From the IMG/VR virus record IMGVR_UViG_3300029258_003331: a DNA stretch of 34,768 nt; one strand, given 5' to 3'. Shown here one piece after another: positions 7,280 to 15,279 of the stretch. How positions within the stretch are numbered: the stretch's first letter is position 1; each line of letters begins with the position of its first letter. The notes below the pieces were generated by a model. That model saw only the letters and a program-made list of their open reading frames with translations. It was not told the origin of the DNA and made no database searches. This stretch comes from a virus (taxonomy: Duplodnaviria > Heunggongvirae > Uroviricota > Caudoviricetes). A program made the translations under genes and the position numbers.

Positions 7280-7618
7280 CTACCGTAGGCGGCGTTTCTT
7301 CCCGAACAATTCTTGCCTACGTTTTTTCACGACCGTTTTCACTTCTTCAGGTTGCATTTTGTCCAGGCTAGTCCGAACAGGGGTGATTTGAATCCCCTGG
7401 GTCGGACGCCTGTTTCTGACTGACCTGAGAACGTATGCGTCGCGGAATTCAGAAAAGTGCGCGAAGACCAGGCTTATGGATTCCTCATCCGGTAAGCCTG
7501 GGTATTTCCGGCGCAGCAGTTTGTATTCACCTATCGTTGAAAAGAAAACGCCATACCCGATGACAGCGTCGATAAGCGCTTGTTTGCGACTGTCAGGTGG
7601 TTGCGTGTTTTCGTTCAT
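7280..7618 (-). CDS. Hypothetical protein
   Basis: 112-aa ORF filling the gap, convergent with 7021-7278. No competing long + ORF. Confidence 0.55.
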   Translation of the reverse strand: MNENTQPPDSRKQALIDAVIGYGVFFSTIGEYKLLRRKYPGLPDEESISLVFAHFSEFRDAYVLRSVRNRRPTQGIQITPVRTSLDKMQPEEVKTVVKKRRQELFGKKRRLR

Positions 7619-7898
7619 GGTTTCGATTCTACATCTTTCTTCCTAGATTTTCACAAAAAAGATGGCGACGAACGTATAACTAGGAATGGTAAGGACGTGC
7701 GGAGGGTGAGTCATGTCTTTTTTTGCCATTTAGGGACCGGGAAATGCGAATAGGTGTCATTGGTTCCTATATTTCTTTGATACCCTCCTGTGAGTAGGCT
7801 GATAAATGATCACACCGGAGGGATGCAACGGATATTTCGGATTCGCTCTACGATTGAGCGGGAGTTCCAGGGACTCATAGTTGACTGGAGGCGAAGGG

Positions 7899-10766
7899 AT
7901 GCCGGTACGTCGCGGATGGCACGTGAAGCAATCATTTTCGAACGACTTTGTGGGCATCATGGAAGCACTGGAGGAAAAATACGGCGACAAGATATTTGCA
8001 ATTCAGGGCATTGCCGGCGAGCACATGGACCTGGTTAAGTTCAGCAAACGGTTTTTCAAGAGCGCGACGGTAAGTGTGGCGGATGTGAGCGTAGATGGAA
8101 ATGCGAATGTCACCGAAAAAAACATCATGCAGTACAACTACGAGGCGAACAAAGCGTTAATGAAGTTGAACAGCCTTTATCTTCTTTTCAAGTGGGTCAA
8201 GCGTTTCTATGGTCATGACGCTGCGGAGGAGGCGCTGGAGAAGGTAGTCAACGGCGAACTTTTCGTCAATGACCTCGTAAACTACTCAATGCCGTATTCG
8301 TACTATCAGCAGACTCCTGTGATAGTGCGCGTAAATGGTGGTCCAACTCGCCTTCTGACCATGAAGGCGTTGTTTGAAGAGTATGAAGAGTTTGCCGAAC
8401 ACCATCCCGACCGTGAAACAATCAACATGACAAGTGTTTACAAGGAACTGGATTTTCATCGTGTTGCGGTGGGCAGCGACAGGAAGAAAATAGTGCTCAG
8501 CGGAAAAGCATCAGAATCCGTTTTGCAGCGGCACCGTGTGGAAGTACTCGATGGAAATGGCGAGTGGGTGGTACTCAAGAGAATACTTCGTCACCAGAAT
8601 GAACGTGGCTATGTCATTTATCAAACAAAAAATGGCGACATGGCTTTCGTGACAGACGATCATCCGGTTATCATGGAAGACGGGTCAGAGAAGAATGCGG
8701 AGGACCTGGTCGCCGGGGATACAATCAGGGGAAGCGAGAATACACTGCAATTACGTTCTATTGTCGATGTTCCTGCTGACATGGCGTATTTGATGGGCTT
8801 TATCGCTGGAGATGGTTCAGTAGGGCGGCACAAGTTCTACTCTGGCTCAAAGAATCTTACCGGCGAAGAGGTTGCTATCAAAGTGGATGAACTTCGCGGA
8901 AACATCCACATCTATCAGAAGAACATCGTCGAGACAAAGATTTACGAAGTGGTGACAAGGTTGTTCCCTGAGTGTGCCGTAAGGACGCGGGACGACAGGC
9001 AGATCGTCTTCAACTCAAATCATTTCAGGATGCTGCTTGCGAAGGTTTTTGGTGTTGGCTACGAATCGTCATATGCCAAGTCCCTTCCGAATAACGTGCT
9101 GGATTGGGACGCAGAATCGGTCAGCGCATATGTCGCGGGACTGGTGGACAGTGACGGCATTGTCACTCGGGGGTCTGTGAACCTTCGTATGTCGGCATAC
9201 GCAATTGTGAACCAATTGTCTGATGTGCTGGCGGCAATGGGTGTCTTCAATCATAAGAGTGTCGAGGAGATTGGCGAATCAAGTTCGGGACATGGTAAGG
9301 GTGGGGTTACATTCTTGTTCGGACTTTCATTTCAGCCTAATGAGGACATGATTGACGCATCTGTGAAGTTATCCTCTTTTGCGCGAGAGGGCGGGCTCAA
9401 CAGCAGTCTGGACACGAATGAGCGCACGAATGAAGTGTCAAAGACATTTCGATTGGATGCAGGAACGCAGAAGGTCACTCCCTCTGGTGAGGATGTTCTT
9501 GGGTTTGTATACGACATCACAACGGAGTCTGGCACCTTCTATGCTTGCGGAATGACGCAACATAACTGCTTTGCCTTTGATTTGCGTAATCTCTTGGCTA
9601 GTGGCATGGCATTTTTTGACGGTAATATGCCTATCAATCCTCCAAAGCGCAGTGACTCGTTTTTTGCCCTTCTCATTCAGTCGACCGCCTACATCAGCAA
9701 CCAGATTCTCGGCGCGGCTAGCTATCCGGATTTCTTTGTGGCATTGGATTGGTTTTACCGGAAAGAGATGGGTGAAGACTACGCGAAGCACCTGGATAGA
9801 AAAGAAACGTGGGGGAAGATCAAGAACCAATTCCAAAACTTGATTTTCTCTCTCAACTTTCCTTTTCGCGGAAATCAAAGTGCCTTTACCAATCTCAGCG
9901 TAATGGACAAAGGCTTCTTGGCGGAGTTGTTTAGGGGCTATGCTTATCCGGATGGCACCAAACCGGACCTGGATAGCGTCTTGGTGTTATCGCGGCGCTT
10001 TTTTGAGTATTACGCGGAAATCAACTGCGAAGAGGGCATTTTCACTTTTCCCATTATGACCTTGGCGATTTCTCTTGACGAAAACGGGGAGTACATCGAC
10101 CCCGAATTTGTTGACTGGGCTGCCGAAGCCAACTGCGCCAAGGCAACGGCAAACATTTTCCAATCAAAGCCCAATGCATTCTCCTCGTGCTGCCGGCTGA
10201 AATCCGAGTTCGACAAGGTAGCGAGCGACGGGTACCAAAATTCGTTCGGGGTTGGCGGTTTGTCAATCGGTAGCCACAGAGTAGCCGGGCTGAACCTGCC
10301 CCGCATTGCCATTTTGGAACGCGATGATCCGGATATCCTGGAAAAAGACTTGGCAGTTCTCCACAAGATTTTGGTTTCCCATCGACGACTTATCCAACAC
10401 CGCATTGAGACGGGTCACTTGCCACTCTACACGACAGGCTGGATTGACCTGCGTCGCCAATACAGCACGATTGGTTTTGTAGGCGGTTACGAGTATGTGG
10501 TGAACAAAGGACTCGACATCAAAAGCGAGGAGGGTATCCAAGCGCTTGCCAATGTGCTCCAGACCGTCGAACGTCACATCGCAGAGTGGCAGAAACACGA
10601 AAGGAGAGAAGGTCGCATACGCATTGTGACTGACGATGGGGAAGTACTGCATTTCGAGCCAAGCGACGAGTTGACGGTGAAACACGTATCCAATGGCAGG
10701 GTGTCCAAGGTGACGGCTTCTGAGTACATGGAGAATCAGGACAGTTACCTCTTGGGAATCGCTTGA
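7899..10766 (+). CDS. nrdD: Anaerobic (class III) ribonucleotide reductase, N-terminal fragment, intein-containing, no ATP cone
   Basis: GGAGG RBS with ATG 7899. Motifs DGNANV, MPY|CFAF, SNQILGA, FTNLS, TFPIMT, SSCCRL, LNLPRIA, QYSTIG. Stops before the NIEQ-PAE motif and the glycyl-radical motif. Confidence 0.9.
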   Translation: MPVRRGWHVKQSFSNDFVGIMEALEEKYGDKIFAIQGIAGEHMDLVKFSKRFFKSATVSVADVSVDGNANVTEKNIMQYNYEANKALMKLNSLYLLFKWVKRFYGHDAAEEALEKVVNGELFVNDLVNYSMPYSYYQQTPVIVRVNGGPTRLLTMKALFEEYEEFAEHHPDRETINMTSVYKELDFHRVAVGSDRKKIVLSGKASESVLQRHRVEVLDGNGEWVVLKRILRHQNERGYVIYQTKNGDMAFVTDDHPVIMEDGSEKNAEDLVAGDTIRGSENTLQLRSIVDVPADMAYLMGFIAGDGSVGRHKFYSGSKNLTGEEVAIKVDELRGNIHIYQKNIVETKIYEVVTRLFPECAVRTRDDRQIVFNSNHFRMLLAKVFGVGYESSYAKSLPNNVLDWDAESVSAYVAGLVDSDGIVTRGSVNLRMSAYAIVNQLSDVLAAMGVFNHKSVEEIGESSSGHGKGGVTFLFGLSFQPNEDMIDASVKLSSFAREGGLNSSLDTNERTNEVSKTFRLDAGTQKVTPSGEDVLGFVYDITTESGTFYACGMTQHNCFAFDLRNLLASGMAFFDGNMPINPPKRSDSFFALLIQSTAYISNQILGAASYPDFFVALDWFYRKEMGEDYAKHLDRKETWGKIKNQFQNLIFSLNFPFRGNQSAFTNLSVMDKGFLAELFRGYAYPDGTKPDLDSVLVLSRRFFEYYAEINCEEGIFTFPIMTLAISLDENGEYIDPEFVDWAAEANCAKATANIFQSKPNAFSSCCRLKSEFDKVASDGYQNSFGVGGLSIGSHRVAGLNLPRIAILERDDPDILEKDLAVLHKILVSHRRLIQHRIETGHLPLYTTGWIDLRRQYSTIGFVGGYEYVVNKGLDIKSEEGIQALANVLQTVERHIAEWQKHERREGRIRIVTDDGEVLHFEPSDELTVKHVSNGRVSKVTASEYMENQDSYLLGIA
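8298..9566 (+). mobile_element. Intein (423 aa, Ser1) with LAGLIDADG endonuclease
   Basis: Block A SYYQQTPV, block B VTDDHP, LAGLIDADG-like LMGFIAGDGS and VAGLVDSDG, block F VYDITT, terminal HN followed by Cys+1. Confidence 0.9.
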
Positions 10767-10812
10767 GGTTCCTTGTGTTGCCGTGGAAAACCGAGGTAGG
10801 TGGGGAAGCCAC

Positions 10813-12501
10813 ATGAAGTGCGAGATATGTGGAAAAACGGGATTCAAGAACAAGGACGGGGTTAGGAAACACCTGTGCCAAAAACATCCCGACTGTGACC
10901 CGGTGGACTACTACGACCAGCGTCTTCGGAAACAGGGAGAGGGAATCTGTCAAGCCTGCGGTGCGCCGACGACCTTTATCTCCTTCGGAAAAGGATACCG
11001 AAGATTTTGCAGTTGTTCTTGCGCAACCGGGCAATTCTGGTCCGACGATGAGAACCGGAGAATAAGAACGAAGCAGATTGTGAGCGGCACATCTACTGAA
11101 GAGGCGATACAAAAGCGAAGGGTGGCTATTTCGAAGTCGTGGAGGACGAGGAGTAAGGAGGCAAGAGAGAGAAGCCTCGCCAATATCAGGGTGTCTGGCG
11201 AGGAACATCAGTTCGGCACAGAAAAGCACAGACAGGCGATGATCCGAAGGTATGGTGCTGACAACTATTTCAAGACGGAAGAGTTTCAGGAAAGGATGAA
11301 AGGAAGAAGAGAAGAGATAGAGGAAAAAAAGAGACAGACGCACCTGAAACGCCGTGGTGTTAAACATTACGCCATGACGGAGGATTGGAAGGAAAGATTC
11401 AGACAAGCGGCAAGAAGAAGTCGGTATGAACTTTTCCTTATTCAGATGAGACAGAAGCAAATTGAGGCGTTGTTCGATAGAGCCTTTTTTATCGAGGCAA
11501 CGGCTGGTTTCAAATACAGATGCTTGCGGTGCGGTTTGGAGTTCGAGGGGGATAGCTGTGTCGCTCAATTGGTGTTTTGTCCATCGCAAGAACATAAATA
11601 CACGAGTGCGGCAGAAGATGAGATAGAGAAGGTTGTTTCGGACCTGGGGATTGCCTCCGAGAGGAACAGGAGATTTTACTACGACGGGACGAGATATCAC
11701 GAGATTGATGTATTTCTCCCGGGCTGCAGCGTGGGGATTGAACACCATGGGGCGTACTGGCATTCTGACCTGTTCAAAGACAAGTCATACCACCGTGAGA
11801 AGTACCTGTTTTTCCGGGAGAAAGGCATAAGGCTGATTCAGATTTTTGACAGCGAAATGGCGGACAGGTTTGAGTGTGTCAAGTCGCTGATTCGTTCCGC
11901 TGTCGGTAAGAATGTTTCCGTTTATGCCAGGCAATGTGAGGTGGCAGAAGTTCCCAGGAGAGACGAGGTGGAGTTTCTGGAACAAAACCACATCCAAGGA
12001 TCATGCATCGGTGGTTCCTTGGCGCTTGGTCTTTTTCGCGGTGGGGAAATCGTTGCTGTTGCCGTCTTTGGCAAGGCGAGATACAGGAAGGATTTTGATT
12101 GGGAATTGCTGAGGTTTTGTTCAAAGGCTGGATTGTCGGTCATTGGTGGTTTGAGTCGCTTGCTGAAGAGAGTAGAAGGATCGATTGTTAGTTACTGTGA
12201 TGTGCGCTTGTTCGATGGGCGCGGATACGAGAAGGTTGGGTTCCAGAATTGTGGACTGACTCAACCGAACTACTACTACTTCCGGAAAGGGAGCCGGAAA
12301 CTTCAAAGCCGGGTTAGGTTTCAGAAACACAAACTGCCGCATATTCTGGACGACTATGACCCGAGTCTTTCTGAATGCGAGAATATGATGAAAAACGGCT
12401 ATTACAGGATTTTTGACGCCGGCATGCTTCGATTTGAAAGGAAAACCTGTGAAATTCGTCAAAGCGACCGCAAACAGGAAACAGGAAAAAACAATCTATA
12501 A
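10813..12501 (+). mobile_element. Free-standing Hef-like homing endonuclease gene inside nrdD
   Basis: N-terminal Zn motifs (CEICG..HL..KH; CQACG..CSCSC), Vsr/DUF559-like EIDVFLP..GIEHHGAYWH, and a C-terminal ARQC..NHIQG..ELLRFC..SYCD..QKHKL domain typical of phage Hef-like proteins. Confidence 0.75.
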
Positions 12502-13045
12502 CATTGAGCAAATTCCAGCCGAGTCAATGGCTGTGCGGCTGGCTCAGATTGACCGCCTCATGGGGTTCAATCCGAGGGAATTTGAACTCTACTCGAACCA
12601 GTACATTCCGCTGGTTGAGGAAGCCAGCATTCACGACCGGTTTCGTATCCAGGGGCGCATTGACGGGTTGACAAGCGGGGGTGCCATCCTTCACATGAAC
12701 GTGGACGATGAGAAGCCCTTGGGAGCCCGGCAGTTCAAGCGCATCATGGAGCATGCGAAGAATAGTGGTACTGTGTATTTCGCGGTTAACTACGCCTACA
12801 GTGAGTGCGCGAAATTACACTACAGCATCGGGCGCAAGGAAATTTGTCCCGTCTGCGGCGAGCCTATCCAGCAGCAGTACACGCGGGTGGTCGGATTCGT
12901 GACACCAGTTAGGAGTTGGAATCCTGTGCGCCGTGGCTACGAATATCCAAATCGGGTTTTCTACTCGAATGGCGGCGTGGCTCCAGAGGAGCCCATTGCG
13001 ATTGAAGCAGTCGGGAAGTTTGAGGAGGTCTTGGCATCAGCATGA
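12449..13045 (+). CDS. nrdD: Class III ribonucleotide reductase, C-terminal fragment (glycyl-radical domain)
   Basis: NIEQIPAES, YSNQYIPL, SGGAILH, YFAVN, CxxxH..CPVC Zn site, TRVVGF. GTG 12449 with AAGGA upstream, overlapping the endonuclease 3' end. Confidence 0.88.
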   Translation: MKFVKATANRKQEKTIYNIEQIPAESMAVRLAQIDRLMGFNPREFELYSNQYIPLVEEASIHDRFRIQGRIDGLTSGGAILHMNVDDEKPLGARQFKRIMEHAKNSGTVYFAVNYAYSECAKLHYSIGRKEICPVCGEPIQQQYTRVVGFVTPVRSWNPVRRGYEYPNRVFYSNGGVAPEEPIAIEAVGKFEEVLASA

Positions 13046-13638
13046 AAATCGTTCAGGTGATTTTGGACAGTTTTCAGGAATACGAAGACTATCAGGCTCT
13101 CGTGCTTTTTTGCTCTGGCTGTAATCTTGCTTGCCGGGGGTGCTACAACTACGAAGAGATTACGCAGGGAGAGTCGAAAGGAACCGCTATTGAGTTGCTG
13201 GACGCCCATATAACGCCGCTGCACGAAGCAGCGGTCTTCCTGGGAGGTGAACCTACCCTTTGGGGTCAGAAACTCGTAGACGCCGCCGAAAGGGCTCATA
13301 CAAAGCACGCATTGAGGGTTAAGGTCTTCACGAACGGAATGATGCCTGATGTCGTCGAAAATGTGGCGTCCCGGGGAATTCTGGACGCCCTCAGCGTGGA
13401 CCTGAAGTGTATCTCTAATGCTAGTAACGTTTTAGGAACGACAATTGACGACGAGATGTATCTTCAGCGCGTTACAGAGACGGTGAGAGCAGCCCAGAAA
13501 TACAGAGTAGACGTGGAGTTACGCACGACGACCTTTCAGCACATTGGGGATGTGGCTGCGATTGAGCGTTTTGCCGCGTTGCATTTTCCAGGTGTTTCTC
13601 ACATTTTGCAGGCTGAGTTTACACCGGTCAGGTCATAA
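13042..13638 (+). CDS. nrdG: Radical-SAM activase for class III RNR
   Basis: CSGCNLACRGC (CxxxCxxC), FLGGEPT, KVFTNG. ATGA overlap with the nrdD C-fragment. Confidence 0.85.
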   Translation: MKIVQVILDSFQEYEDYQALVLFCSGCNLACRGCYNYEEITQGESKGTAIELLDAHITPLHEAAVFLGGEPTLWGQKLVDAAERAHTKHALRVKVFTNGMMPDVVENVASRGILDALSVDLKCISNASNVLGTTIDDEMYLQRVTETVRAAQKYRVDVELRTTTFQHIGDVAAIERFAALHFPGVSHILQAEFTPVRS

Positions 13639-14243: not shown

Positions 14244-14319
14244 ATCGACGTGACTGGTGGGCGGACAGTGGTGACTTGGGTCCGTCCACCAGATGTTTCC
14301 GCGTGATGAGGAGATGGCT

Positions 14320-15279
14320 ATGGGCTTTGTGCGGGCGATTGTGGCTTTCTTCAGGAAACTACTTGGATTTGGAGGCGTGAAACCAGTGGCAGATGAATCG
14401 ACAAACCCTTCGACGCCAGCGGATTCTGTAGTGCCCATGAAGAAGAATCGCTACGCCTTGTTGGTGGGTATTAACAAATACGCGATGCCCGGAGCAGATT
14501 TGCGTGGGTGCGTAAACGACGTGGAAAGCATGTGGGAACGGCTGACGAAACTTTACCATTTCGACCCTGATAACATCCGGGTGCTCACTGATGCTCGCGC
14601 GACCAAGGCTAACATCATACAGCGACTTGAATGGCTCGTTCAGGTTGCGAAGGCGGGCGACCATCTCGTTTTTCATTTTTCTGGGCATGGTTCTCAGACG
14701 CGTGATAGAAACAATGATGAACTAGATGACCACCTTGACGAGTTGCTCTGCACGCATGACATGGATTGGGATGACCCACTCACTGATGACCTCCTGGCTA
14801 CCTATTTCAAGCGTGTAGCCAAGAAAGGCGCGCGTCTGACCTTTGTCGCAGATTGTTGTCACAGTGGCACCGTTGATAGGGGGACGTTCGGAAATCCCCA
14901 CCCAACTGGAATTCGTTATCTGCGTCCTCCTGTTGATATCATGCTGCGAAGCCATGGTCGGTCACTGCAAAGGAAGCGCGTGGGGTGGCGGGAAGTTGGA
15001 GTGCGCTCGAACGATGTTACGCGTATCAATCCCCAAAACCACATGTTGATTTCGGGTTGTCGGGATGACCAAACGAGCGCAGATGCCTACATTGACGGCG
15101 AATACCAAGGTGCATTGACAGCCACTCTAACGAGCGTGTTGGATGAGATGCCAGATGCGGACTGGATAAGCATCCACCAGAAGGTCATTGGCGACTTGAA
15201 GGCTGGCAGATATAGCCAGATTCCCCAATTGAGCGGACCTGACGACATGTTGGATGTTGTTCCCTTCGGAGGAATATGA
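14320..15279 (+). CDS. Metacaspase (peptidase C14 family) with N-terminal amphipathic helix
   Basis: ALLVGINKY, LRGCVND, HFSGHG and ADCCHSG dyad motifs, ISGCRDDQTSAD, GALT. Confidence 0.9.
   Translation: MGFVRAIVAFFRKLLGFGGVKPVADESTNPSTPADSVVPMKKNRYALLVGINKYAMPGADLRGCVNDVESMWERLTKLYHFDPDNIRVLTDARATKANIIQRLEWLVQVAKAGDHLVFHFSGHGSQTRDRNNDELDDHLDELLCTHDMDWDDPLTDDLLATYFKRVAKKGARLTFVADCCHSGTVDRGTFGNPHPTGIRYLRPPVDIMLRSHGRSLQRKRVGWREVGVRSNDVTRINPQNHMLISGCRDDQTSADAYIDGEYQGALTATLTSVLDEMPDADWISIHQKVIGDLKAGRYSQIPQLSGPDDMLDVVPFGGI

Follow-up and report, generated by a model that had tools for sequence, protein, structure and literature searches.

Introduction

The catalytic subunit of a ribonucleotide reductase (RNR) can be encoded in pieces and still work, as exemplified by phage Aeh1, whose class Ia reductase is specified by the "genes-in-pieces" NrdA-a and NrdA-b with mobE between them (Friedrich et al., 2007, as cited in PMC3653736). 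The Aeh1 enzyme is active, and the tails made at the insertion are essential for its assembly (Crona et al., 2011; PMC3045599); it is the sole worked example of an RNR that is functional in pieces without splicing. This report describes a locus of the IMG/VR virus record IMGVR_UViG_3300029258_003331 (Caudoviricetes; 34,768 nucleotides, the whole of which is referred to as the window) in which nrdD, the gene of a class III (glycyl-radical) reductase, occurs as two genes, nrdD-a and nrdD-b, with a free-standing homing endonuclease gene between them (Table 1), together with the recurrent and conserved family of split phage alleles to which it belongs. We consider it probable that the locus encodes a stable two-chain class III reductase, the halves of which are translated separately, remain unspliced and associate non-covalently with the aid of a conserved tail and head, the endonuclease being an optional passenger.

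As in Aeh1, an RNR catalytic subunit is split within its barrel around a free-standing endonuclease gene that overlaps the downstream half, the active-site residues are shared out between the chains and the junction shows no recognizable intron or intein; the analogy with nrdA/mobE, drawn in an initial annotation made from the letters of the window, is apt. The two systems differ in the class of the enzyme (III in the window, Ia in Aeh1), in the site within the fold and in the endonuclease, which is Hef-like in the window and MobE in Aeh1. In addition, the tails described here form a conserved family that occurs in at least six lineages, also in endonuclease-free and fused form, whereas Aeh1 is a single instance; the Aeh1 enzyme is biochemically proven, whereas the present case is known from sequence and structural models.

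Interrupted nrdD genes have been reported from several phages. The T4 gene (sunY) likewise carries an endonuclease open reading frame (ORF; I-TevII) and is followed by nrdG, but it has a real ribozyme core (RF00028), at about codon 165, where the window has a protein tail instead. Six cases of split phage nrdD genes, including an intron, inteins and an unexplained break in phiAS4, were listed by Dwivedi et al. (2013; PMC3653736), and in 95 of 104 Jug phage genomes endonuclease genes break up nrdD, one of the junctions showing no evidence of RNA splicing (PMC12880540). These genes are comparable to the present one in being in pieces with endonuclease genes between them; fragmentation is listed there, whereas a two-chain enzyme, conserved tails and endonuclease-free split alleles were not analyzed. 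Split phage nrdD genes, endonuclease-fragmented nrdD and the two-chain class Ia enzyme of Aeh1 are therefore already known, and the remark in the initial annotation that it was aware of no described case should be qualified as regards the fragmentation. No description of a conserved two-chain class III enzyme with a matching tail and head, of endonuclease-free split alleles or of fused derivatives was found in the literature, a provisional result given that most subscription journals lay outside the search.

Two further systems resemble parts of the arrangement. The fractured genes of Dassa et al. (2009; PMC2677866) share the order of half, endonuclease gene and half, with short extensions on both halves, and their hosts include RNR genes in phage-like metagenomic DNA; in the window, however, the extensions are without intein catalytic residues and have half the size of a HINT domain, and the endonuclease is Hef-like. 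YfiD (GrcA), which provides damaged pyruvate formate-lyase with a glycyl-radical domain in trans (PMC8683613), is comparable in that the glycyl-radical loop sits on a small polypeptide of its own and acts together with the body of the enzyme, but it is a repair part for the oxygen-cleaved lyase and not an obligate half, and it is much smaller than NrdD-b.

Organization of the Split nrdD Locus

The product called for nrdD-a (P0227) has 955 residues and its stop codon lies at 10764–10766; for nrdD-b, a separate gene caller returned the identical 198-residue product (P0152). The two match Pfam NRDD over profile positions 53–404 (E = 1.7e-41) and 396–562 (E = 8e-33), respectively, and jointly span positions 53–562 of this class III NrdD family, while NCBIfam NF006127 is covered over 126–464 by nrdD-a and 460–628 by nrdD-b. 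Against Thermotoga maritima NrdD (4coi) the N part aligns up to residue 478 and continues for 10 unaligned residues, and the C part corresponds to residues 491–646, with two residues ahead of 491. Compared with the T. maritima enzyme and with the closest unsplit relatives, no NrdD residue is lost.

The codon for the E of ...AEWQKHE occupies positions 10599–10601 and that for the K of KTIYNIEQ positions 12488–12490. When the closest unsplit relative (P0231, about 76% identical) was used as a tblastn query, its residues 137–492 matched at 9567–10619 and residues 487–650 at 12479–12970; the two matches thus share about six residues, from an E/K-rich linker of low complexity (unsplit form: WQREEKEDGNIYNIEQ), that both halves retain. 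The initial annotation had placed the end of NrdD homology at 10601 and its resumption at 12488, which is right to within a few codons, and two of its observations, the Thermotoga-type spacing of the joined halves and the separate AAGGA and GTG of the C fragment, were reproduced; the search for uninterrupted alleles that it had proposed maps the split to the E/K-rich linker. The 10/11-nt direct repeat that it reported at the breakpoints is real but poor evidence for an insertion mechanism, with two matches in the window versus 1.15 expected and two or more in 32 of 100 shuffles. The first strand of the tail, G-RIRIV (10614–10630), aligns with the barrel strand that opens nrdD-b (12491–12505; G-NIYNI in unsplit relatives), so that more than six residues may be duplicated at the junction, the tail having taken in one diverged copy. 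The upstream P0231 match extends to 10619, i.e., into this first strand.

The catalytic motifs are distributed over the two chains as had been proposed. NrdD-a carries the conserved active-site Cys (in PYCFAFDL, once the intein located between PY and CFAFDL is removed) and the SSCC motif of the finger loop (FSSCCRL). NrdD-b begins with a 15-residue head, VKFVKATANRKQEKT (12449–12493), and continues with IYNIEQIPAES, the Zn-site Cys and His residues and the glycyl-radical motif RVVGF; the glutamate of EQIPAE would have the role that it has in thioredoxin-dependent NrdDs. The segment YTRVVGFV of NrdD-b aligns with MRIVGYL around Gly621 of 4coi, and the C..H..C..C pattern that precedes it aligns as well. 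EQIP, three Cys residues and RVVGF are invariant in all seven split C fragments available. The roles of Cys125 and Gly621 in the T. maritima enzyme are described in PMC4493059.

The gene in the junction, recognized as an endonuclease gene in the initial annotation, is intact. Its frame is open from a GTG at 10783, and its product matches the "homing endonuclease" family phrog_3339 over the full length (profile 55–534 of 536; E = 1.1e-102). Used as a tblastn query it found Hef-like endonucleases in 414 phage records, with matches annotated as Hef-like in records of Yersinia, Acinetobacter and Campylobacter phages; the first description of Hef placed it between nrdA and nrdB of phage U5, where it takes the position of mobE (PMC3322345, citing the original work). 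The locus thus has the layout of genes-in-pieces, i.e., two ORFs with start signals of their own and a free-standing endonuclease gene at their junction. The last 53 nt of the endonuclease gene (12449–12501) overlap nrdD-b in a different frame, and in one split relative (L004) the endonuclease ATG overlaps the nrdD-a stop (TAATG), overlaps which suggest translational coupling along the presumed operon. The same arrangement recurs in a JGI contig, which argues against mis-assembly, and three further contigs were reported as similar places.

Table 1. Features of the split nrdD locus (positions in the window).
Feature	Position	Strand	Remarks
nrdD-a, N-terminal ~3/4 of class III ribonucleotide reductase	7899..10766	+	ATG 7899, frame open from TTG 7881
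LAGLIDADG intein, in frame, 423 aa, within nrdD-a	8298..9566	+	Pfam LAGLIDADG_3, E = 2.6e-5
11-nt repeat, left copy, GAAACACGAAA	10592..10602	+	inside E/K-rich linker
NrdD-a C-terminal tail, 50 aa (RIRIVTDDGEV...SYLLGIA), and stop	10614..10766	+	non-NrdD, beta-rich
Hef-like free-standing homing endonuclease, 562 aa, one intact ORF	10813..12501	+	phrog_3339
nrdD-b, 198 aa	12449..13045	+	GTG 12449, preceded by AAGGA 12438-12442
11-nt repeat, right copy, GAAACAGGAAA, 10/11 match	12478..12488	+	inside duplicated linker of nrdD-b
nrdG activase (radical SAM)	13042..13638	+	Pfam Radical_SAM, E = 4.4e-12; Fer4_12, E = 4.8e-9

Split, Unsplit and Fused Relatives

Split relatives were sought with nrdD-b as the query by means of an exhaustive search and an indexed search, and at least six further nrdD genes of metagenomic phages prove to be divided at the site of the window. 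Their C fragments (P0001, P0153, P0154, P0156, P0159, and P0160) have about 180–210 residues, are 54–68% identical to nrdD-b of the window and begin with an M-x-F-x-K head some 20 residues ahead of EQIP. All available N fragments (those of the window, L002, L004, L006, P0233, and P0236) run past the WQ..EK linker into a tail, and the tails of the five relatives, of about 50 residues, are homologous to that of the window and show a strand-turn-strand pattern; in the window this tail makes the 165 nt 3′ of the breakpoint coding. In the stretch that was read, the A+T content of L002 is visibly far higher than that of the window, and the constraint that keeps the tail thus acts on the protein and not on the RNA. 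The 50-residue tail and 15-residue head are absent from unsplit relatives and conserved among split ones, and correspond to the unique tails at the split ends of genes-in-pieces.

The content of the junction varies. An ORF that is 41% identical to the window endonuclease occupies the equivalent position in L004, and a homologous endonuclease, a DUF7487 ORF, does so in the P0160 contig. In L002 and L006 there is no endonuclease, and the halves are separated by spacers of 29 and 11 nt, respectively, each with a GGAG and an ATG inside. Two unsplit NrdDs, P0232 (L081:198-2363) and that of L089 (L089:457-3855), contain at the split site of the window an in-frame insertion of about 65 residues that is homologous to the tail followed by the head, and this form is either the ancestor of the split or the result of re-fusion after loss of the endonuclease. 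Relatives hence display every stage: unsplit, split with an endonuclease, split without one, and tail and head fused in frame. A scan of IMG/VR returned unsplit relatives only; among the matches listed by a scan of JGI/ENA metagenomes (about half of the loci) there were unsplit relatives, one known split locus and one further fused form.

The AlphaFold2 model of P0232 (mean predicted local distance difference test, pLDDT, 78.8) superimposes on the solved NrdD structures 4u3e and 4coi with template modeling (TM) scores of 0.82–0.87, and a fold search with the whole model returned NrdD only. The insertion appears in it as a beta-rich unit (block pLDDT 83–90) with strands at residues 488–492, 495–498, 502–507, 513–516, 529–532, and 545–549. 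Because the last two strands are joined by a loop that holds the position matching the split, the tail of NrdD-a is probably extended by one strand from the NrdD-b head. The prediction of the two-chain complex that the initial annotation had suggested was carried out with the part of NrdD-a that follows the intein (399 residues) and NrdD-b, and gave a score of 0.88 versus 0.00 for the best control. Among solved complexes 58 of 80 attained this mark, among mismatched pairs 2 of 110. The runs shared at least 81% of their contacts, and the pLDDT of the partner was at least 82. NrdD is a single chain in the solved structures, and the core interface may be drawn from these, the score then expressing likeness to solved NrdDs and not binding. 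A less trivial outcome is that the confident interface takes in tail residues 349–357, 370–372, and 395–399 of the 399-residue chain and head residues 1–11, the models bringing tail and head into contact.

Points that weigh against the two-chain reading are the lack of a recognizable family for the tail, the low confidence of the module when modeled alone and the shallowness of the alignments. The seven tails have no Pfam match at E = 10, and a PDB profile search gave nothing relevant. The P0232 module folded alone, from a two-row alignment, reached a pLDDT of 49, too poor for a fold search, and the tail–head fold therefore rests on models in the context of the whole protein; the alignments behind the models are shallow, with 2 to 21 rows. 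A profile search for the tails in longer proteins gave NrdD N fragments only, and a look-up in the ESM Atlas produced weak structural neighbors (TM about 0.5, e.g., the N-termini of NUMOD4-type endonucleases), a lead and not a finding.

A Putative Two-Chain Reductase

According to the reading preferred here, NrdD-a, after its LAGLIDADG intein has been spliced out, would supply the bulk of the barrel together with the conserved Cys and the Cys pair of the finger loop; NrdD-b would contribute the Zn site, the loop of the glycyl radical and the strand that bears the glutamate of EQIPAE. The chains would associate non-covalently via the ordinary core interface of NrdD, helped by an extra module in which the head of about 15 residues contributes a strand to the beta-rich tail of about 50. 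NrdG would install the radical on the small chain, from where it would pass to the Cys on the large chain. Neither RNA nor protein splicing would join the halves, and the Hef-like gene in the junction would be an optional selfish passenger. Of this picture, the anatomy of the genes, their conservation and their distribution in the family are observed, whereas association of the chains, the part played by tail and head, activity and the order of events are inferred.

If confirmed, the hand-over of the radical from Gly to Cys would cross a chain boundary in an obligate heterodimer, the tail and head would represent a natural compact pair that reassembles a split enzyme, and the family would provide a test case for selfish nucleases as drivers of gene fission and of the birth of insertion domains. 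As regards annotation, "NrdD" ORFs of about 200 residues next to nrdG need not be pseudogenes.

Alternative Explanations for the Split

It is possible, if rather unlikely, that the enzyme has two chains and that the endonuclease played no part in dividing it; a loop insertion of about 65 residues (the P0232 form) would have been followed by fission, or fission would have come first, and a Hef-like gene would have homed into the spacer later. Such a late arrival agrees with the split alleles devoid of endonuclease, the occurrence of fused forms, the statistical weakness of the breakpoint repeat and the usually intergenic location of Hef-type genes (PMC3322345, citing the U5 work), but homologous endonucleases are found in the same junction of three diverged lineages. 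As L002 and L006 keep an identical split without an endonuclease, this gene is dispensable for the split state and may be an occupant rather than its cause. The interpretation given in the initial annotation, largely right and partly supported by the present analysis, had missed the tail and head and assigned too much to the endonuclease: the causation implied by "fractured by an endonuclease" finds no support in these two loci.

The relationships among alleles bear on the same question. A tree of the C-terminal 165 residues of NrdD is poorly resolved, the split alleles forming no clear clade in it, and the order of events, including a late arrival of the endonuclease, is therefore not decidable from the tree. 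Over the 179 residues downstream of EQIPGESM the split P0159 is 94% identical to the unsplit L009, but just upstream the two are unrelated. The C part of the window shares 80% identity with the unsplit L082 and 77% with the unsplit P0231, more than the 67% of its best match among the other split alleles. Because the near-identity of the first pair ends at the junction and the closest relatives of the C part of the window are unsplit, the split state, or the whole block of tail, endonuclease and head, is gained or lost by recombination on short time scales. The pattern fits that expected from homing with co-conversion; precise replacement by an unsplit allele would look identical. Divergence exactly at the junction would also suit a cassette that moves whole with its endonuclease, which speaks against a late arrival of the latter.

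A further proposal is tentative and, in our view, rather unlikely. Tail, endonuclease gene and head would form one mobile cassette, a selfish element that uses neither RNA nor protein splicing and whose two halves of a small complementing domain keep the invaded enzyme at work as two chains; the cassette would move between nrdD alleles by homing, and later decay of the endonuclease would leave a permanent split or a fused loop insertion. If true, it would constitute a third way, beside introns and inteins, to make the insertion of a homing endonuclease harmless.

It is quite improbable that insertion of the endonuclease inactivated nrdD and that the fragments are decaying while the phage uses a reductase of the host or another one. 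Fragmented, degenerating RNR genes are known in Campylobacter phages (PMC3653736), but in the window both ORFs are intact and have start signals, the catalytic motifs do not vary among split alleles whose identity has fallen to 54–68%, the tail and head are themselves conserved, nrdG is kept beside the gene in every member and the intein is still in frame with its end residues intact.

A fractured gene as defined by Dassa et al. (2009), in which the tail and head would be the halves of a split intein and protein trans-splicing would ligate NrdD, is highly improbable, although the layout is the one seen in fractured genes (PMC2677866), with an extension on the N-extein, a free-standing endonuclease and a short extension ahead of the C-extein. 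The nrdD genes of this clade are indeed heavily colonized by inteins (one in the window, three in L002) and the window tail includes a loose T-x-x-H-like stretch, LTVKH, but the His of the latter is not conserved among the members. None of the seven members has a conserved Cys, Ser or Thr at the first tail position or an Asn followed by Cys, Ser or Thr at the border between head and extein, the tail has no intein or HINT match in Pfam even at E = 10, and the fused P0232 and L089 retain the module in frame as part of the protein. Tail and head together amount to about 65–70 residues, and a minimal HINT domain is about twice that size. A split intein, with its position-1 nucleophile, terminal Asn, +1 Cys, Ser or Thr and HINT fold of about 130 residues, was thus rejected on residues and size, with no support from Pfam or PDB. 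Translational bypassing was also considered for the short spacers of L002 and L006 and discarded, as every member has its own ribosome-binding site and start codon and the gap in the window is 1.7 kb.

The least probable explanation, a group I (or II) intron with an endonuclease ORF whose splicing would restore a continuous nrdD mRNA, can draw on the T4 layout (core 5′ of the I-TevII ORF), the roughly 210 nt ahead of the endonuclease ATG and a chance of about 0.07 that an extension of 54 codons is open by base composition, but it is close to refuted, since a search of positions 7500–13500 with Rfam cmscan at E up to 10 found no intron family, RF00028 included, and only two chance-level matches (in the T4 nrdD control, at a different site, RF00028 scored 105 bits, E = 1e-27), the 5′ stretch encodes a protein tail conserved in five other lineages, the 29- and 11-nt spacers of L002 and L006 make an intron impossible there, and the endonuclease ORF extends 53 nt into nrdD-b, leaving no 3′ intron elements. 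The initial annotation had argued that the insert leaves no room for an intron core; there is indeed no core, and the stretch that follows the breakpoint is the coding tail, which had been overlooked. All sequence tests for splicing at the junction were thus negative.

Inteins and Genomic Context

The intein of the window starts with Ser (SYYQQ...) and ends with ...HN, followed by the conserved active-site Cys of CFAFDL. Its boundaries were set from a relative, P0002, that has an uninterrupted ...CYCYAFDL, and the tblastn matches of P0231 break at 8303 and 9567, on either side of it. As the intein lies in frame directly before this universally conserved Cys, the mature large chain would need protein splicing of this element too. 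In the syntenic relative L002, nrdD-a (L002:2710-7971) is an ORF of 1753 residues with three inteins in addition to the tail; they are inserted before CFAFDL, inside RGNQ/S.FTNL and inside GGLSVG/SHRVAG (a slash marks the site), and the gene is exceptionally rich in selfish elements. In another NrdD relative, P0101, the C-terminal end of an intein (...LLIHN) stands directly before SAIKLAQ, i.e., inside EQIPAE/S, a second site for mobile elements a few residues downstream of the split site.

The window has the appearance of phage DNA. Its long ORFs are almost all on the + strand, and it contains a match to a major head protein (phrog_2522, E = 7e-54) as well as matches to other virion proteins. 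A blastn comparison of the locus with GenBank phages gave no match, and among named relatives the reductase comes closest to the unsplit NrdD of Desulfovibrio phage ProddE (46% identity in the C part). No second nrdD was found within the window by tblastn with P0231.

An intact nrdG, the radical-SAM activase gene expected beside nrdD, adjoins nrdD-b, and its start overlaps the nrdD-b stop codon; nrdG lies downstream of nrdD in every member, at the equivalent position in L002, L006, L081, and the P0160 contig. No sigma-70-like promoter or terminator-like site intervenes on the + strand between nrdD-a, the endonuclease gene, nrdD-b and nrdG, which fits, as weak evidence, a single operon. A gene of the caspase family (Peptidase_C14) is located a few genes 3′ of nrdG both in the window (14293–15279) and in L002 (L002:10641-11615), in conserved synteny.

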